Shown: piece by piece, positions 17,901 to 33,870 of the stretch
Layout: every line of letters begins with the position of its first letter
Numbering within the stretch: position 1 is the stretch's first letter
Source: an uncultured Desulfocapsaceae bacterium
Lineage (GTDB): Bacteria > Desulfobacterota > Desulfobulbia > Desulfobulbales > Desulfocapsaceae
NCBI GenBank assembly: GCA_964565605.1
Contig: CAZMFP010000014.1
Coordinates: 9,700 to 73,699, forward strand
Reading direction: 5' to 3'
DNA: 64,000 bases
The notes under the pieces: model-generated
Database searches by the model: none
The model's input: the letters and a program-made list of their open reading frames with translations, nothing else
Told to the model about the DNA's origin: nothing
Made by a program: the position numbers and the translations under genes

Positions 17901-18118
17901 TACTGTTTGTGGTTCGCATCAGAGCTACTGGCATGAAGTAATGTGCAATACCTACGAAATACTATTAATTTCAGACAGTATCACAATTTAATAACAGATT
18001 CATTCTCTTCTCTATTTCCCTTGACACACCCTTGGGTAATGTCCTAGAAGTAAGGCATAATAGCAGTCTAATTTTGTTTGAGGTCGAAGTAATCTGTTCA
18101 CATTCTACGGAGGCAAAG

Positions 18119-18532
18119 ATGACAAAAAAAGAGTTAAAGAAGTTTCTTGCCGGCCTAAGCGTCGCAAGCCTGCTCAGCGTTGGCGGAGTCGGTATGCACG
18201 GCGCCCAAGCCGGTCCCAGTGGATGAGGTGACAAACCCGGCACAGGTGGTGCCGACTCAAAAAAAGAAGCTTCAGGCAGTGGCTGAGGCGGTGGATCCGG
18301 TGCAGGTGGCACCGACCAACCGACCAGCGAAGAAGAGGCCAAGAAAAAAGATCCCGGAACAAGTGGCTGAGGTGGTGGATCCGGTGCAGGTAGCACCGAT
18401 CAACCAACCAGTGAAGAAGAGGCCAAGAAAAAAGATCCCGGAACAAGTGGCTGAGGCGGCGGATCCGGTGCAGGTAGCACCGATTCTAAAAAGTCTGAGG
18501 ACGACAAGTCCGGGAAAAGTGGCTGAAGCTGA
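18119..18532 (+). CDS. Poly-selenocysteine, tandem-core SbtA-like RiPP precursor (137 aa if all five in-frame UGA are read as Sec)
   Basis: ATG 18119 has a GGAGG RBS. The signal-like leader is MTKKELKKFLAGLSVASLLSVGGVGMHGAQA. Five in-frame TGAs follow at 18224, 18284, 18368, 18452 and 18524, all in an S-G-U-G(G) context. My translation is GPSG-U-GDKPGTGGADSKKEASGSG-U-GGGSGAGGTDQPTSEEEAKKKDPGTSG-U-GGGSGAGSTDQPTSEEEAKKKDPGTSG-U-GGGSGAGSTDSKKSEDDKSGKSG-U-S-stop (TGA 18530-18532). Each UGA has a SECIS-type hairpin 11 nt downstream. Six of 7 substitutions between repeat units are synonymous in this frame. The ORF track shows only 18032-18226. Confidence 0.75.
18224..18254 (+). promoter_or_regulatory. 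Sec-UGA 1 plus SECIS-like hairpin
   Basis: TGA 18224-18226 is followed by an 11-nt spacer and then CGGCAC-AGGUG-GUGCCG at 18238-18254. Confidence 0.65.
18284..18314 (+). promoter_or_regulatory. Sec-UGA 2 plus SECIS-like hairpin
   Basis: TGA 18284-18286 is followed by an 11-nt spacer and then CGGUGC-AGGUG-GCACCG at 18298-18314. Confidence 0.65.
18368..18398 (+). promoter_or_regulatory. Sec-UGA 3 plus SECIS-like hairpin
   Basis: TGA 18368-18370 is followed by an 11-nt spacer and then CGGUGC-AGGUA-GCACCG at 18382-18398. Confidence 0.65.
18452..18482 (+). promoter_or_regulatory. Sec-UGA 4 plus SECIS-like hairpin
   Basis: TGA 18452-18454 is followed by an 11-nt spacer and then CGGUGC-AGGUA-GCACCG at 18466-18482. 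Confidence 0.65.
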
Positions 18533-18623: not shown

Positions 18624-20213
18624 ATGAATCATTCTAAGAAAACATCGCAAGGCCACAATTTTCAAACAAGATTTCCATCCTCCTGGAGTCTTGTTCAGCA
18701 GGTTAATAACGACCTGGCAGACTTGGTGACAACCAAAGAAGAGTTTCACCAACTGTGTCGAGACAACCCTTCAGTCGTCGATACATTTCCTTTTCTTCCT
18801 GAGTTGTTTTCAGTTGAACAATCCATTCACAAGCTTCAATCAACAACACCTGGAATAGAGATACCGACTTCAGAAATCATCGTCAATCCTCAGCTTGAAC
18901 TCATCACTGTTCAATATTCCGGCCTGGCAAACCTGCTCAATGATAAGCCATGCGTCCCGACCAGGAAGTTGTCTCATATCTGCATTTTTCGAACTCCTGG
19001 TGAAAAGGATATACAGGTTGTTGAAGCTCACCCCCATGATCTTCTTGCTCTTAAAATTGTCTCAGAAAGTCTCGACTACAGGCAAGTTTCCAGGGAGGCC
19101 GGAACCACCCTTGGCCAGATCGATGATATTGTTTACAACGCCATTCAAAAAGGGATTTTGATCAGTCCCTCTTCACGAATTAGAAGACCAGAAGAATTTA
19201 AAGCGGGTTGTGTTACCGACAGAAGTTTTTTCTCATCCAGAGTCTTTACCCTGCAATGGCACATTACCCAGCAGTGTGACCTGCACTGCCGCCACTGTTA
19301 TGACAGGAGTAAGAGACAGGAAATGACTCTTGAGCAGGGAACACATGTACTCGATGAGTTGTATGACTTCTGCCTGAAACAGTTTGTCTACGGTCAGGTG
19401 ACTTTCACCGGCGGGAACCCGCTTCTCTACCCTGATTTTCTAGAATTATATCGCCAGGCTACAGACCGGGGCTTTCTCACAGCCATTCTCGGCAACCCTA
19501 CCTCACGTGCTCAACTTGAAGAAATCCTCCATATACAAAAACCGCAATACTACCAGGTCAGCCTGGAAGGGATGGAGAGTCATAATGATTATATCAGGGG
19601 AAAAAATCATTTTAACAGGGTGATTAAGTTCTTACAGCTGCTCAAAGAACTCGATATCTACTCAATGGTGATGCTGACCTTGACAAGAGATAATCAGGAT
19701 CAGGTCCTGGAGTTGGCCGAGTTCCTAAGGGATAAAGTCGATCGATTTAATTTTAACCGGCTCTCAATGGTCGGTGAAGGGGCGGCCCTTACCTCTGTTG
19801 ATGTTGATGGATATTCTAACTTTTTAAGAAACTACAAAAAAGCTGCTGAAAACAACCCTGCCATGGGTCTGAAAGACAATTTTTTCAACCTGCTCCAGTA
19901 TCAGGACAATGCAACCCAATTTTATGGCGGTTGTGCCGGTCACGGTTGCGGTGCTGCCTTCAATTTTGTTTCACTCCTACCCGATGGTCGAGTGGATGCC
20001 TGCCGCAAATTTGACTCCCCCATGGGCAACATCTTCAAGGAGGATTTCTTAAAAATTTATCACGGTAAACAGGGTGAGCTATACCGAAATGGACCATCGA
20101 ACTGTAACGATTGCGATATTCGTCCAGTTTGCCGAGGATGCATGGCTGTTTCTTTCGGTATGGGAAAAGATGTTTTCAAAGAGATAGACCCGTATTGTTT
20201 TATGAAGAAGTGA
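18624..20213 (+). CDS. Radical SAM/SPASM peptide maturase, SbtM-like (thio/selenooxazole-forming family candidate)
   Basis: A 529-aa ORF. An N-terminal domain of about 200 aa could be a peptide-recognition domain. The radical SAM motif is QQCDLHCRHCY. The C-terminal SPASM-like Cys cluster reads CAGHGCGAAFNFVSLLPDGRVDACRKF...CNDCDIRPVCRGCMAV. It lies immediately downstream of the Sec-rich precursor. Confidence 0.8.
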   Translation: MNHSKKTSQGHNFQTRFPSSWSLVQQVNNDLADLVTTKEEFHQLCRDNPSVVDTFPFLPELFSVEQSIHKLQSTTPGIEIPTSEIIVNPQLELITVQYSGLANLLNDKPCVPTRKLSHICIFRTPGEKDIQVVEAHPHDLLALKIVSESLDYRQVSREAGTTLGQIDDIVYNAIQKGILISPSSRIRRPEEFKAGCVTDRSFFSSRVFTLQWHITQQCDLHCRHCYDRSKRQEMTLEQGTHVLDELYDFCLKQFVYGQVTFTGGNPLLYPDFLELYRQATDRGFLTAILGNPTSRAQLEEILHIQKPQYYQVSLEGMESHNDYIRGKNHFNRVIKFLQLLKELDIYSMVMLTLTRDNQDQVLELAEFLRDKVDRFNFNRLSMVGEGAALTSVDVDGYSNFLRNYKKAAENNPAMGLKDNFFNLLQYQDNATQFYGGCAGHGCGAAFNFVSLLPDGRVDACRKFDSPMGNIFKEDFLKIYHGKQGELYRNGPSNCNDCDIRPVCRGCMAVSFGMGKDVFKEIDPYCFMKK

Positions 20214-21003: not shown

Positions 21004-22662
21004 ATGGACTTTTGGCGCAACTATAAAAAACTGTTCGGTGACGTTACTCCTCCCGTATTGACACTTATGATCATTGCGGCTCTTATGGTCATGGAGACGG
21101 CTATTTCACTTGTCTCACCCTGGATTGCCGGTCGATTTACCGAGACGCTTTTATCCCCCTCACCGTCTTTATCTTTTTCATCTCAACAGCTTCTTATGAT
21201 CTGGCTGGTTATTTTAGCAATTAAAGGAATCTTGAACTTTTTTAACAGTTATTATACCGGAAAGATCTCCCAGAAAATGCTGACAGACATGCGGATAAAA
21301 CTCTACAATCATCTGCAGATGCTGCCGATAAGTTACTACCATGATAAGAAACATGGTAAAATACTGGCTTTTCTCACCAATGACGCAGCTATTATCTCCA
21401 CATTTATTACCGGCACCCTGGTCAGGCTGATTCCAATTATCATCACGATCTGCGGCGCTCTTATCTGTATCTATTTTATTTCTCCAATGGCCACTCTGTT
21501 TGCGGCTTTACTCATTCCTGTCTTTTATATCATCACCAAGCTTCTCGGACGCTCTATCCGGGGCCTGTCGCAATCGATGATTGAAGAATATTCCAAAACT
21601 CTTGCCATTGCCGATGAAAACCTGTCAACTCTGCCTCTTATCAAATCGTATACCAGAGAAAATCAAGAATCACTGAAATTTTCCAGGAGCAGTCATCGGC
21701 TCTTGAGGCAGACCATCAAATATCTAAAAATACAATCCTTTCTTGCACCGCTTACAAAATTTCTAGCAACAGTTATCATATTCATCATTCTCTGGTTTCT
21801 CTCCAACCAACTAGTCGAAGGAGTGATCAGCTCGGCTGACATGGTCTCCCTGATCCTGTATGGAATGCTGATTACCCAACCGATCAGCGGTCTCGCCAGC
21901 CTGTATGGACAACTTCAACATACCATTGGCGCCTCTAAGCGGCTCTATCAACTTTTCTCTATCATTCCGGAAAACAAATATAGTGGAGCGACCCTGGAAC
22001 ACGTCCGCGGAGATATAGAATTTTGCAATATCAATTTCAGCTATCCCGGTCGAGACGCTATATTTTCACAACTTAATTTAAAAATTACCGCTGGAGAAAC
22101 CATCGCCATAACCGGTAAAAACGGAGCCGGAAAATCAACTCTGGTCCATCTACTCATGCGATTCATCAATCCCGGTAGCGGTCGGATACTCATTGACAAG
22201 GAAAATATCCGTAAGTGTTCTATCTTGAGCCTTAGGCAGCAGATCGGCATGGTTCAACAGCAGGTTTTTTTGCAAAATTCAACTGTTAAGGAAAATATTC
22301 TTTTTGGTAAACCAACGGCTACTACTGAGGAAATCGAGGAAGCTGCCAGAAGAGCTCATGCCAGTGATTTTATTAATAAACTGCCGGATGGCTATGATAC
22401 ATTAATCGGAGACCAGGGAATCAAACTGTCCGGTGGCCAGAAACAGCGACTGGCTCTTGCCCGAGTCATGCTCAAAGATCCACCAGTGATGATACTTGAT
22501 GAAGCTACCGCCATGTTTGACCCGACAGGAGAAACAGAATTTATCCAAGAATGCAAAAAGCTGTTGAAAGGTAAAACCGTCATCCTCATCACCCACAGAC
22601 CAGGAAGTCTAGCTTTGGCCGATACAGTCTATACGCTTGAAAACGGCCGGCTTAGAAAATAA
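21004..22662 (+). CDS. ABC exporter, fused permease/ATPase (MsbA/ABCB type)
   Basis: The N-terminal domain has 6 TM segments. Motifs present are Walker A GKNGAGKST, signature LSGGQKQR and Walker B MILDEAT. Confidence 0.85.
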   Translation: MDFWRNYKKLFGDVTPPVLTLMIIAALMVMETAISLVSPWIAGRFTETLLSPSPSLSFSSQQLLMIWLVILAIKGILNFFNSYYTGKISQKMLTDMRIKLYNHLQMLPISYYHDKKHGKILAFLTNDAAIISTFITGTLVRLIPIIITICGALICIYFISPMATLFAALLIPVFYIITKLLGRSIRGLSQSMIEEYSKTLAIADENLSTLPLIKSYTRENQESLKFSRSSHRLLRQTIKYLKIQSFLAPLTKFLATVIIFIILWFLSNQLVEGVISSADMVSLILYGMLITQPISGLASLYGQLQHTIGASKRLYQLFSIIPENKYSGATLEHVRGDIEFCNINFSYPGRDAIFSQLNLKITAGETIAITGKNGAGKSTLVHLLMRFINPGSGRILIDKENIRKCSILSLRQQIGMVQQQVFLQNSTVKENILFGKPTATTEEIEEAARRAHASDFINKLPDGYDTLIGDQGIKLSGGQKQRLALARVMLKDPPVMILDEATAMFDPTGETEFIQECKKLLKGKTVILITHRPGSLALADTVYTLENGRLRK

Positions 22663-30656: not shown

Positions 30657-30682
30657 AAATAATTATTACACAGGAGTAAACA

Positions 30683-30886
30683 ATGAAAAAAAATGAAAAA
30701 AAGACCTCAAGCGACCCCCGACCCGCATATGTTCCTCCTCAGGTTTCTAAATTAGATGACATGCACGCCGGCGCTGGATATGGTTGTGTCCCTGGAAGCG
30801 GCGGATCATTAAACTGTTCAAACAGTGGCAGTAACGCAACTAATTGCATAGGATCAGGCAGCTCCGCAGACAACTCTATTGGGTAA
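30683..30886 (+). CDS. Candidate RiPP precursor peptide (67 aa, Gly/Ser/Asn-rich core with three Cys)
   Basis: AGGAG lies 7 nt upstream of ATG 30683. The sequence is MKKNEKKTSSDPRPAYVPPQVSKLDDMHAGAGYGCVPGSGGSLNCSNSGSNATNCIGSGSSADNSIG. It has a charged leader and a low-complexity core, and it sits between the maturases and the peptidase-fusion gene. Confidence 0.6.
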   Translation: MKKNEKKTSSDPRPAYVPPQVSKLDDMHAGAGYGCVPGSGGSLNCSNSGSNATNCIGSGSSADNSIG

Positions 30887-30901
30887 GACCTGACTCGTTA
30901 G

Positions 30902-30954
30902 CAGCTGGATCTACCAATTTCCTGTTAACAAAACATGGAAATGGTATCCAGCTG
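30902..30954 (+). other. Long hairpin immediately 3' of the precursor ORF (transcript stabiliser or partial terminator)
   Basis: cagctggatctaccaatttcc - 14-nt loop - ggaaatggtatccagctg. About 17 bp pair, with two bulges. No T-run follows. Confidence 0.5.
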
Positions 30955-30976
30955 TAAGTGATCACTGCATCTTTTC

Positions 30977-32677
30977 TTGCCATCGGCATACTCTCCTTTA
31001 CTGAATATGTTATACAGTGATCATAGATCTGCTTTCCCGCAATACATCCTGCAATTGACGGGACAGCAATGGGCTATACAGGCCGGTAACACGGAAGCTA
31101 TCAACATCGTTAACGACTTTGCAAATGCCATGTCGTTATCCCTCGTCAACCAGGCAACTGATACGAAAGTACCTGAAGAAGCAACTTGGAGCAATTTAGT
31201 CGTTTTCATAAACCCTGCCGGCAAACGACTAACCGTTAATATTCATCAGTCCAAACCTCATATCTGCGTTCTTCCTTCACCAGACGATAATGAACTCTAT
31301 GCACTAGCCATGTCACATATTGGCCTGAGCATACTTCCTGTTGAATTAGAAAGAGGCGGAGTTCTGGTACATGGCGCCTTAGCTGAAGTCCCTGCTCATT
31401 ATGGTGGCGGAGGCATTTTACTTGCTGGCCCCGGCACTGTCGGAAAGACGACTGCCAGCAATAGACTACCTCCTCCCTGGAAATCATTGAGCGATGACGC
31501 TTCCCTGATATCGCCAGGTGATGACGGTCAATACTGGGTACACCCATGGCCCACCTGGAGCCGATTCAACGACTTACCTGATGGAACTCCTGGCTCTGGC
31601 GGCATCTGGGACACTCAATACAGGCTTCCGCTTCGAGCTGTTTTTTTTCTATCACAGGCAGAAGAAGATCGAATCAGCCCCATCACCCCAACATCCGCAA
31701 CTTCTTGCCTGATGGAAACAATCCAACATGTTTCAAAGCTTCTCACCCGCCAACTTCCTCTTGTGGATGCACAGCCTATTCACGAGAAAGAGCTCCTCAA
31801 CGCCTCAGAAATTATGCGTGTCACCCCTTCCTACAGGTTTGACATCAGCCGATCCAGGCCATTCTGGAAAAAGATAGAAGAACTATTCCGCACAACCCCA
31901 CCAACCATTCCTCATCAACCAAAACGTACCATACCCCTCACATCTTCATTGACAACAAAGAGCCAATTTTCTCAAAAACCTCTTTTTCGAGACGATACAA
32001 TAATAGTCAACTATTTTGGCAATAGTATGAGCCCGACACTGAACCACCCTGATTTACTCATTGTCTCATCTTATAAAGGACAAACCCTGAATGTTGGTGA
32101 TGTTATCTATTACCAGCCACCAGCAATCGAACCTAAAACCGTACATCGGATTATCGCCTCAATACCTGAAGGATTTGTTACCCGTGGTGATGGTAATAAC
32201 GCAAACGATGCCTACATACTGAACCGAAACGATATAATCGGCATTGTTACCGCTGCCAGGAGCTACAACAAACATCGTGTTGTTGCCGGGGGCAAGAAGG
32301 GACTCTTGATTGCTTATCGCTGCAGGTTTGCCAAATGGTTACATCACCAGCTCTCCTTTCTTCTGGGCGGAACTTACCGGCGACTTGTCTCTTCGGGCTT
32401 TTTTTATAATCGACTACCAGCATGGCTAAAACCGCAAATATTCGAATTTAAACGACAATTTTTACCTCCTATTCTCAAATTGATCATCAAAGGATATGTT
32501 ATCGGCCAATTCAATCCTCAGCAGAAAAATTGGCAACTCAATCGACTCTGGAAATTGCTCATTGACACATCAACTCTTCCTATTGCAAGAGACCTATCAT
32601 TCTTTTTCATTTCGTACCAGGATCTTGATCGCCATATCCTCAACCATTCATCGCCCCCACATGTGCCATATAAATAA
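30977..32677 (+). CDS. HPr-kinase-like (ScmC-like) P-loop domain fused to an S26B (SipW/archaeal-type) signal peptidase I domain
   Basis: The N-terminal half has GVLVHGALAE...GGGGILLAGPGTVGKTTAS, an HprK C-domain-like P-loop. The C-terminal half has FGNSMSPTLNHPDLLIV (Ser nucleophile box), VHRII (His box) and TRGDGNNANDAY (GDNN box). The start is either TTG 30977 or ATG 31007. Confidence 0.7.
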   Translation: MPSAYSPLLNMLYSDHRSAFPQYILQLTGQQWAIQAGNTEAINIVNDFANAMSLSLVNQATDTKVPEEATWSNLVVFINPAGKRLTVNIHQSKPHICVLPSPDDNELYALAMSHIGLSILPVELERGGVLVHGALAEVPAHYGGGGILLAGPGTVGKTTASNRLPPPWKSLSDDASLISPGDDGQYWVHPWPTWSRFNDLPDGTPGSGGIWDTQYRLPLRAVFFLSQAEEDRISPITPTSATSCLMETIQHVSKLLTRQLPLVDAQPIHEKELLNASEIMRVTPSYRFDISRSRPFWKKIEELFRTTPPTIPHQPKRTIPLTSSLTTKSQFSQKPLFRDDTIIVNYFGNSMSPTLNHPDLLIVSSYKGQTLNVGDVIYYQPPAIEPKTVHRIIASIPEGFVTRGDGNNANDAYILNRNDIIGIVTAARSYNKHRVVAGGKKGLLIAYRCRFAKWLHHQLSFLLGGTYRRLVSSGFFYNRLPAWLKPQIFEFKRQFLPPILKLIIKGYVIGQFNPQQKNWQLNRLWKLLIDTSTLPIARDLSFFFISYQDLDRHILNHSSPPHVPYK

Positions 32678-32952
32678 CCTAGAAGCACTTTTTGAACAGC
32701 AGCATCTCTCCTCCGATGGAGATGAAATTTTTTCCGGAAAAATGAAACGCTTTTCCGGAAATTTGAAATTGCGGTGCTTCACTCCTCAATCATCAAGACC
32801 AATCTATACAATATCAACCTGTTACCAACCAACAATCAAATCTATGGTTTGGCACGCATGTTGCAAAGAAAACAGTAAATACTTATATTCACATATACAG
32901 AATACGATATTTGCTCAATAGAAATACAAAAAGTGCAGAAGAGGAGATTGTT

Positions 32953-33870
32953 ATGAAATTAAAAATCAGATTGTTTTTCTTGCTGGCTAGTATAATGCTT
33001 TTCAGCGCAACAAATGTGTTAGCAGCCAGTTTTGTCATTAATGACAGATGGGATGAGGACGGTATCTATTGGGGTGGTCAAAATTATGATTTTGGAGGCA
33101 CTGGTTATAATCTGCCCTCAGGAGAAGATCTTGTTGGCCAGCCTGATGAGTTTGAAATTTCCCAAGTAAATGTAGACATCACAAACACGGAATTAGAAAT
33201 TGATGTGCACTCCGTCTTCATGAACTATATGGCAACTCACGATACCCCCGTTGAGTTTGGAGACATATTCCTTAGCAATGATGGCTGGAATCCAAACACA
33301 GCCGGTGTAAACTATCAGTATGATGTTCAAGGTTTTGGCGGAGAAGACTGGGAATATGTTTTGGTTTTTGATGACCATTCCCCAACCACCACTACCGGGA
33401 CATTTAACCTCTATGAAGTTGATGAAAGTAGAATCATTTACCCAGAGGACATCGCTGCTCTAGATCCTAGCTCAGTGCGCCATGGCCAAGAAGTTCTCTA
33501 TGATGCAACCGGGCAGGAAGTATTAAATCAAGGCTGGTACAGGGACTCCAATGGTAATTGGCAAAATGGCATTCTCTCGGGTACATGGGAATGGTTTAAT
33601 TGGGATACTCCAGATGCCAGTGACGATTTTGTAACCTTAACCATGAATTTGAATTTTTGGGTTCGTGACAGTAATTATCGGTGGAACAATGTTACTTGGG
33701 GTAACTTAGGACTCGTTGATGACATGGGTATACACATGGCGATGACATGCGCCAATGATGTTGTTGAAGGTGGCGATGAAATTCCCGAGCCAGCGACCAT
33801 GATGCTCTTTGGAACCGGACTTGCAGGACTAGCTGGCAGCGCCATTCGCAGAAGGAAAAAAAATAAGTAA
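32953..33870 (+). CDS. PEP-CTERM sorting-domain secreted protein
   Basis: A GAGGAG RBS precedes the start. The signal peptide is MKLKIRLFFLLASIMLFSATNVLAA. The C-terminus IPEPATMMLFGTGLAGLAGSAIRRRKKNK shows the PEP motif, a TM helix and an Arg-rich tail. Confidence 0.8.
   Translation: MKLKIRLFFLLASIMLFSATNVLAASFVINDRWDEDGIYWGGQNYDFGGTGYNLPSGEDLVGQPDEFEISQVNVDITNTELEIDVHSVFMNYMATHDTPVEFGDIFLSNDGWNPNTAGVNYQYDVQGFGGEDWEYVLVFDDHSPTTTTGTFNLYEVDESRIIYPEDIAALDPSSVRHGQEVLYDATGQEVLNQGWYRDSNGNWQNGILSGTWEWFNWDTPDASDDFVTLTMNLNFWVRDSNYRWNNVTWGNLGLVDDMGIHMAMTCANDVVEGGDEIPEPATMMLFGTGLAGLAGSAIRRRKKNK

Follow-up and report, generated by a model that had tools for sequence, protein, structure and literature searches.

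The open reading frame at 30683-30886 on the forward strand of the window, the whole 64,000-nucleotide stretch from an uncultured Desulfocapsaceae bacterium that was analysed here, very probably codes for a precursor peptide that is a divergent form of the ScmA type and belongs to a SynChlorMet (SCM)-like RiPP cassette, the best explanation of the data taken whole. The SCM cassette was predicted bioinformatically over a decade ago, in the TIGRFAMs era, and the family has been defined bioinformatically only; no publication on the cassette or its product was found in the literature, reviews and compendia. As judged from its profile matches, the gene block around the peptide is a relative of this named system (NCBIfam TIGR04248-TIGR04252). 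The peptide is thus a divergent member of a known, experimentally uncharacterised kind of precursor, and not a new kind of system.

The frame opens with an ATG and encodes 67 amino acids (MKKNEKKTSSDPRPAYVPPQVSKLDDMHAGAGYGCVPGSGGSLNCSNSGSNATNCIGSGSSADNSIG), exactly as first described. The strong AGGAG ribosome-binding site of the original prediction is also present, with a spacer of 6 nt instead of the 7 nt given there, and the closest relative of the locus (L086, see below) carries AGGAG at a comparable position ahead of its peptide gene. Three Cys residues had been reported at intervals of 11 and 10; all three are there (Cys35, Cys45 and Cys55, codons 30785-87, 30815-17 and 30845-47) and are followed by V, S and I, respectively, and the intervals are 10 and 10. 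The boundary between leader and core would lie near residue 32/33 (Table 1). The core is of low complexity and rich in G, S and N, and the peptide represents a short, three-repeat member of its family, with a 12-residue tail after the last Cys. Gene callers have predicted this frame on 9-10 independent contigs. A Sec signal peptide at the N-terminus was considered and rejected, as the translation, when read, lacks a hydrophobic h-region; a Sec reading is also opposed by the S26 peptidase domain encoded downstream, which is fused to a soluble domain and, by eye, has no apparent hydrophobic membrane anchor.

The region that follows the stop codon (30887-30976) folds into a strong RNA hairpin (MFE -31.4 kcal/mol, z = -6.1; 0/200 shuffles as stable), possibly an attenuator or a transcript stabiliser. 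Comparable post-gene hairpins occur in some relatives only (L006, L077); the hairpin is not conserved across relatives and was rejected as a feature of the family.

Table 1. Positions within the window of the precursor gene, its signals and the neighbouring cassette genes.
Feature	Position	Strand	Details
ScmD-like PqqD-family RRE, copy 1 (ScmD1), 100 aa	27752-28054	+	Pfam PqqD 37.4 bits
ScmD-like PqqD-family RRE, copy 2 (ScmD2), 91 aa	28051-28326	+	Pfam PqqD 36.4 bits
ScmE-like radical SAM/SPASM enzyme, 378 aa	28330-29466	+	TIGR04250 378.5 bits vs cutoff 400
ScmF-like radical SAM/SPASM enzyme, 397 aa	29463-30656	+	TIGR04251 335 bits vs cutoff 400
Shine-Dalgarno AGGAG	30672-30676	+	6 nt spacer to ATG; read from sequence
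Predicted leader, residues 1-32	30683-30778	+	Y16-V-P-P19-Q-V-S-K-L24, then G30-A-G32 before the core
Predicted core, residues 33-67 plus stop	30779-30886	+	Three 10-residue C-x2-4-G repeats (Cys35, Cys45, Cys55)
RNA hairpin	30900-30956	+	Just 3' of the precursor stop codon; strong fold
ScmC, 556 aa from ATG 31007	31007-32677	+	ORF opens at TTG 30977; TIGR04249 132.7 bits vs cutoff 125 (residues 87-302)
ScmC SEC11/SipW-type S26 peptidase domain	about 32006-32260	+	SMSPT / HRI / RGDGNNAND motifs

The peptide gene lies within a co-directional, tightly packed block that reads ScmD, ScmD, ScmE, ScmF, peptide, ScmC-S26 fusion. ScmC alone scores above its NCBIfam equivalog cutoff, the SCM models being the best matches of ScmD, ScmE and ScmF yet below cutoff in each case. 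For ScmD1, which has orthologues at the same position in the related loci L001-L016, the best NCBIfam match is TIGR04248 ScmD (34 bits against a cutoff of 100); ScmD2 reaches 31 bits against the same model and cutoff, and its next-best NCBIfam matches are lasso-peptide PqqD chaperones. The two radical SAM/SPASM enzymes both contain CX3CX2C and a complete set of seven SPASM Cys, which appear in the translation of ScmE as CNLRCQYC and the full 7-Cys SPASM motif, and in that of ScmF as CNLACRHC and CX2CX5CX3C. ScmF has 1898 homologues at E<=1e-30, many of them named ScmF by JGI. The nearest solved relatives are SkfB, PqqE, SuiB and CteB for ScmE, and SkfB and CteB for ScmF, and against the PapB, AlbA, SkfB and StsB models the two enzymes score only 65-106 bits, with cutoffs of 300-850. 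An N-terminal RRE domain is absent from the translations of both enzymes. A dedicated exporter was not found adjoining the cassette in the window, the nearest one lying 5 kb upstream beside the SbtM locus. That locus, at 18119, is a separate SbtA/SbtM selenopeptide system with its own SG-U-G precursor beside SbtM; the echo of its cores that the original prediction saw in the peptide is superficial and compositional only. In the vicinity of the cassette, 31 of the 80 related loci described below carry MsbA-like ABC exporters, and because such an exporter follows the cassette in many relatives, export of the product is suggested.

Conservation of the small frame was followed across 80 genome loci fetched via ScmF alignment. 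Their source MAGs belong to Desulfobulbus, Methanoregula, WOR-3, Chloroflexota, Aminicenantes, Syntrophales, Lentisphaerota and others, the cassette occurring mainly in strict anaerobes, methanogens included; a metagenome scan with ScmF as the single query gave one locus only. When the window proteins were mapped onto these loci, the order found was ScmD (in one or two copies), ScmE, ScmF and ScmC with or without S26, and the arrangement ScmD-ScmE-ScmF-small ORF-ScmC recurs in MAGs of the first six groups named above and in others. Small ORFs 3' of ScmF encode one type of peptide again and again: an RBS precedes the gene, the N-terminus is basic, a Y-x-x-P motif is present, and the repetitive tail is rich in Cys, Gly, Ser, Ala and Thr. 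A peptide HMM was built from 16 such ORFs, that of the window among the seeds, and searched against 10,231 ORFs of 25-200 aa from the 80 loci and the window. It recovered 75 ORFs at E<1e-3 (the one in the window and 74 in the loci) from 57 of the 81 sources; most matches with E between 1e-3 and 0.1 are look-alike peptides of weaker score, and ORFs that are clearly unrelated first turn up above about 1. The frame at 30683, itself a seed of the model, scores 57 bits and is the only match within the window. The original prediction looked to related cassettes for homologous small ORFs, and they are there: among the 72 informative loci, defined as those with at least 600 bp after ScmF, 41 hold a family ORF directly after ScmF (same strand, <=700 bp) and 54 hold one anywhere in the locus, while the HMM detects none in 18. 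Several loci hold 2-5 different precursor copies.

Searches that started from the window peptide alone gave a second view of the family. A word-indexed protein search returned only the peptide itself, on 9 contigs, and no homologue. When 1.84 billion representative proteins were scanned in full with HMMER (phmmer), 30 reached E<=1e-3, namely the query, 27 peptides of 63-117 aa and two long proteins (790 and 1144 aa). Of these 27 peptides, 24 were read, and all carry the same leader/Cys pattern, D-x-R-P-x-Y-x-x-P-x-V-x-R-L-x-D-x-H-x-G-x-G...C-x-P-G-S-G...C...G-N-x-A...C. Being obtained with a single query, this recovery of 27 subfamily peptides is support independent of the seeded HMM. The Cys conservation on which the original prediction turned is borne out by the alignments: across 25 subfamily representatives (A6), Y16, P19, G38, C45, G49, C55 and G59 never vary, and conservation is at least 90 % for P14, L24, G30, G32 and S39. 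C35 is likewise invariant in the family alignment of 68 sequences (A2) and in one of 15 sequences (A4), the first Cys drifting by 1-2 columns in A6.

The closest cassette, L086, has a ScmF 63 % identical to that of the window and the same downstream PEP-CTERM and polysaccharide-deacetylase neighbours. Its peptide, MSTNKKDSKAKDTRPVYTPPQVVHLDDMHTGTAACAAGSAAQLDCGIPGNGASGSCAPQGLNN, has a conserved leader and a variable core, with three Cys at 35/45/56. Over a 19-codon leader stretch, pS is 0.70 and pN 0.24 between the two genes, and this excess of synonymous change indicates that the leader is under purifying selection. On the comparative evidence the ORF at 30683-30886 is confirmed as a real, conserved gene, beyond chance expectation, and homologous ORFs beside ScmF together with Cys and leader conservation lend support to its predicted role as a RiPP precursor for the adjacent SPASM enzymes.

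The family leader follows the consensus K-x-K-Y-E-(K/P)-P-x-(L/A/V)-(V/I)-(D/R)-L, in which the Pro is invariant, the aromatic position is Tyr in 91 % and Trp in 7 % of peptides (Y/W 98 %), and Leu stands at +8 in 72 %. This is the [Y/W]xxPx[L/V/I/F/A] pattern to which discrete PqqD-like RREs bind in the lasso peptide and the linear polyphosphorylated peptide (LPP) systems (PMC13381572). The leader motif for PqqD/RRE proteins that had been anticipated can accordingly be placed on the conserved Y-x-x-P...L of the peptide, a putative recognition element of the kind bound by discrete RREs. From the Tyr to the first core Cys there are 17-21 residues (mode 18), 19 in the window peptide, and the stretch upstream of that Cys favors Gly at -2 (51 %) and Ala or Gly at -4 (58 %). 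The core is modular: family peptides contain 2-14 Cys (median 5) in tandem 10-11-residue C-x-x-G repeats, with 10 (129 cases) or 11 residues (85 cases) between consecutive Cys among 305 intervals, and usually end 6-9 residues after the last Cys. Within the repeats, Gly occupies Cys+3 in 83 % and Ala +6 in 36 %; a conserved acceptor such as Asp is absent from the family core repeats, Gly+3 being the only near-invariant residue besides Cys. The suggestion that two maturases and three Cys might mean two chemistries is not backed by this distribution, as the same two maturases accompany peptides with anything from 2 to 14 Cys.

The curated precursor model for the cassette is NCBIfam TIGR04252, 'SynChlorMet cassette protein ScmA' (49 positions, cutoff 35 bits). 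The assignment of the window peptide as a divergent member follows from its missing this model, with no match even at E<=10, and from the weak matches of its relatives, the best of which reaches about 21 bits (E 1.4e-5), below the cutoff; permissive thresholds bring out sub-threshold matches in 15/68 and 4/25 family members. The peptide has no family match in NCBIfam and no database name, it fails the curated sacti/ranthi precursor models including SCIFF, and Pfam scans of the peptide family gave noise only. What marks it as ScmA-type is its position between the ScmF-like and ScmC genes, together with the leader motif and Cys repeats that it shares with the family.

The protein encoded after the peptide combines two domains. 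The precomputed annotation assigns the gene at 31007-32677 to Pfam PF27840 ScmC, and the product's C-terminal part matches the archaeal-type signal peptidase I model TIGR02228 (55.7 bits against a cutoff of 51.85, residues 344-428). The ScmC family profile matches SEC11C (E 3e-13), and the SMSPT, HRI and RGDGNNAND motifs are kept in the family; the domain is of the archaeal signal peptidase type with Ser/His/Asp, and a predicted leader peptidase. AF2 models of ScmC have a pLDDT of 84 for the full length and 89 for the N-terminal domain. The N-terminal 300 residues adopt in the model a PEP-carboxykinase-like fold, and the top Foldseek matches are all PEP carboxykinases (E about 4e-8), with moderate TM (TMq 0.5-0.56). 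In its layout a first beta-strand leads into the P-loop GPGTVGKTT, a helix follows, and the next beta-strand ends in Asp-Asp; G146, K147, D163 and D164, i.e., Walker A and the beta2-Asp-Asp, are invariant in the family. In ECOD, HPr kinase is placed within the small PEPCK T-group, with the same beta1-P-loop-alpha1-beta2-Asp element (PMC7758060). The N-terminal domain has no sequence-level match to HprK families or to any family in the Pfam set searched, and its predicted link to HprK is one of fold and motif only. Two ScmC homologues (P0153 and P0160) are fused to a PqqD domain, which fits RRE-dependent action of ScmC on the peptide.

A maturation pathway can be proposed from these elements. 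The leader (about residues 1-32) would bind as a strand to the discrete ScmD1 and ScmD2 via Y16-x-x-P19...L24, by analogy with other discrete RREs, and the two proteins would present the core to the RRE-less ScmE and ScmF; since both enzymes lack their own RRE domain, delivery of the peptide is most likely the task of the ScmD proteins. ScmE and ScmF would then modify each Cys repeat (Cys35, Cys45 and Cys55). By analogy with SkfB, CteB and PapB, thioether formation is the most likely activity of the two enzymes, and the product would be an intramolecular Cys-S-to-carbon ring of the sactionine or ranthionine type, one per repeat; the thioether (sacti/ranthi) chemistry of the original prediction is to this extent plausible for the window core. 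The PEPCK/HprK-like P-loop domain of ScmC would add a nucleotide-dependent modification, most likely phosphorylation of core Ser, and its SEC11/SipW-type S26 domain (Ser-His-Asp) would cut off the leader close to the conserved G-x-G that immediately precedes Cys35. The mature product would finally be exported, in relatives with an MsbA-like exporter after the cassette. Each chemical step, that is, the thioether, the phosphorylation and the cleavage site, we infer from homology and analogy.

Comparison with known systems places the window cassette nearest to SCM, with which it has the gene set and order in common (PqqD-like ScmD, ScmE, ScmF, small Cys-repeat peptide, ScmC). The clade of the window differs from curated SCM in having two ScmD genes and a longer leader, D-x-R-P-x-Y-x-P-P...L-D-D-M-H-x-G. 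The ranthi- and sactipeptides (freyrasin PapA/PapB, subtilosin/AlbA, SKF/SkfB, thermocellin/CteB) likewise have a leader and a periodic-Cys core beside RRE-dependent SPASM maturases, PapA containing six tandem Cys-X3-Asp motifs (PMC9413430). Unlike those systems, SCM has discrete RREs and always a pair of different SPASM enzymes, its repeats lack a conserved Asp/Glu acceptor and have Gly at +3 instead, and the candidate leader peptidase is of the S26 type; membership of the sacti- or ranthipeptides cannot be claimed for the window peptide from genes alone. Lasso peptides share with the SCM family the [Y/W]xxPx[L/V/I/F/A] leader and a discrete PqqD-like RRE, and a few family peptides match a lasso-leader model weakly; unlike lasso clusters, the window cassette lacks both a lasso cyclase and a B2 protease, and the peptide shows neither Thr at -2 nor a macrolactam acceptor pattern.

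The LPP system (LppA/LppB/LppK/LppS) resembles the window cassette in its YxxP leader (Y16-V-P-P19 here), its discrete RRE and its archaeal-type SpI. During LPP biosynthesis an HprK-like kinase phosphorylates core Ser, and removal of the leader by the archaeal-type SpI LppS (Ser/His/Asp) requires the presence of the RRE (PMC13381572); according to the same 2026 paper, SpI-like peptidases had previously been unknown in RiPP pathways. LPP clusters, which are found in Bacillota, contain no radical SAM enzymes and yield a linear product, whereas the SCM cassette has two conserved radical SAM/SPASM enzymes; LPP cores are not Cys-repeat peptides, and, unlike in LPP, the kinase-like and S26 domains of SCM are fused in one protein. 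A more far-reaching reading, which may be entertained tentatively and is held with less than even confidence, is that the SCM cassette, here in a two-RRE variant, makes a RiPP class of its own that joins ranthi/sactipeptide to polyphosphorylated-peptide logic. Such a class would be defined by tandem 10-11-residue C-x-x-G modules each closed by radical-SAM chemistry, by two obligatorily paired SPASM enzymes and by an LPP-like finish in which an HprK/PEPCK-fold kinase is fused to a cytoplasmic SEC11/SipW-type leader peptidase; it would extend across bacterial phyla and methanogenic archaea, with a chemistry unlike that of any characterised class.

Several other explanations have to be weighed against the pathway proposed above. 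The peptide could be a genuine precursor on which ScmE and ScmF make no thioethers, the alternatives being Cys-derived heterocycles, as attributed to SbtM, or C-C or C-O crosslinks or epimerisation elsewhere in the repeat, in which case the Cys would stay free thiols or metal ligands. This is unlikely, though it carries more weight than the other rivals: the two enzymes stand as near to PqqE, MftC, AhbD or NirJ-type enzymes as to thioether synthases, the C-C crosslinkers PqqE and SuiB are among their PDB neighbours, the repeats offer, besides Cys, only Gly+3 (83 %) as a near-invariant residue and no conserved acceptor such as Asp, and the neighbouring SbtM goes in NCBIfam under the name of a thio(seleno)oxazole-forming SPASM enzyme. 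Against it, the invariant element within each repeat is the Cys, and periodic Cys in a SPASM-associated core are a hallmark of sactipeptides and ranthipeptides, PapA being an example (PMC9413430). It is less probable still that the peptide gives rise to a cofactor or metal-binding molecule of peptide origin that stays inside the cell, in the manner of PQQ or mycofactocin, and not to an exported product. The maturases do resemble PqqE and MftC, and the RREs PqqD; the cassette of the window has no adjacent transporter, and strict anaerobes, including methanogens, are its main hosts. Hypervariable cores of 2-14 repeats speak against a cofactor, PqqA and MftA having fixed cores, as do the 2-5 different precursor copies of several loci and the exporters of the MsbA type in 31 of 80.

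The least favored explanation, that the frame is a chance one in a low-complexity intergenic spacer or a substrate of SbtM instead of ScmE/ScmF, is effectively refuted. It drew on the G/S/N-rich composition of the core, on the failure of the word-indexed search to find a homologue and on the SbtM maturase 10 kb upstream. The leader motif, the positions of the Cys and the place of the gene are nonetheless kept across phyla, an RBS is present, and the leader evolves under purifying selection; a link of the ORF to the SbtA/SbtM locus was rejected, SbtM having its own adjacent SG-U-G precursor. A divergent ScmA-type precursor modified by ScmE and ScmF, most likely through thioether rings, is hence the preferred reading.

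The precursor family extends far beyond what the curated ScmA model detects, and most of its members, the window peptide included, are unnamed in annotation. A testable architecture has been gained: the YxxP...L leader keeps a fixed spacing to the first Cys, the C-x-x-G repeats are modular, and G-x-G is a candidate site of cleavage. ScmC joins a predicted PEPCK/HprK-fold P-loop domain to an archaeal-type signal peptidase, a pairing first described experimentally in RiPPs in 2026, for the LPPs (PMC13381572). With its three repeats and 35-residue core, the window peptide would be a convenient minimal substrate for reconstitution, and the SCM system offers a way into the radical-SAM peptide chemistry of methanogens, syntrophs and Desulfobulbaceae. 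The window locus makes a useful, tractable representative of an uncharacterised RiPP class, which ScmC ties to the RRE/kinase/SpI maturation logic.

Two separate RiPP systems are present in the window, the SbtA-like/SbtM locus and the SynChlorMet-like cassette. In the selenopeptide precursor of the former, Lys/Glu-rich spacers separate five TGA codons that are in frame and all have an SG-U-G/S context; the gene for an SbtM maturase follows immediately. An MsbA-like exporter gene is flanked by this SbtM locus and housekeeping genes, and in 31 of the 80 related loci a comparable exporter is encoded close to the SCM cassette, frequently 3′ of ScmC. On the other side of the cassette, the order of genes is shared with the closest relative, L086: in both, a PEP-CTERM protein gene comes after ScmC, and next to it lies a gene for polysaccharide deacetylase-2 in divergent orientation.

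Coordinates of features in the window and in related loci (L-numbers)
Feature	Locus	Position	Strand	Remarks
SbtA-like selenopeptide precursor, MTKKELKKFLAGL...	window	18055-18460	+	reading frame of 17903
SbtM thio(seleno)oxazole radical SAM maturase	window	18624-20213		TIGR04082, 648 bits
MsbA-like ABC exporter	window	21004-22662		5 kb upstream of ScmD1
RNA hairpin, strong	window	30900-30956		directly 3′ of precursor stop codon; z = -6.1 vs shuffles
PEP-CTERM sorting-signal protein	window	32911-33870		after ScmC
PEP-CTERM sorting-signal protein	L086	6446-7291		after ScmC
ScmA-like precursors	L080	5305-6505		five in tandem
ScmA-like precursors	L057	8008-8319, 11043-11342, 12570-12752
ScmA-like precursor	L002	6447-6722	-	opposite ScmF
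ScmA-like precursors	L007	8178-8474, 8938-9504	-	opposite ScmF
ScmA-like precursor	L004	2255-2473	-	opposite ScmF

Several related cassettes carry three to five different ScmA-like precursor genes (L080, L057, L035, L032), and a second ScmE/ScmF pair is present in L057, L019, L022 and L035. In some Methanoregula-type loci (L002, L007, L004) the precursors are encoded on the strand opposite to that of ScmF, and the position of the precursor is therefore not fixed in archaeal cassettes.

The hairpin that follows the 67-aa precursor gene of the window has like counterparts after the precursors of L006 and L077, while most relatives among the compared loci have no comparable hairpin 3′ of the precursor. 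It may set the ratio of precursor to enzymes, either as an attenuator or as a stabiliser. Downstream of it, the ScmC ORF has two candidate starts, TTG 30977, with which the frame opens, and ATG 31007, the one chosen by gene callers (556 aa). In some ScmC homologues (P0153, 651 aa; P0160, 621 aa) a PqqD domain is fused to the protein (PF27840 + PF05402), and because of this domain architecture it is implied that the RRE-bound leader would be what ScmC acts on.
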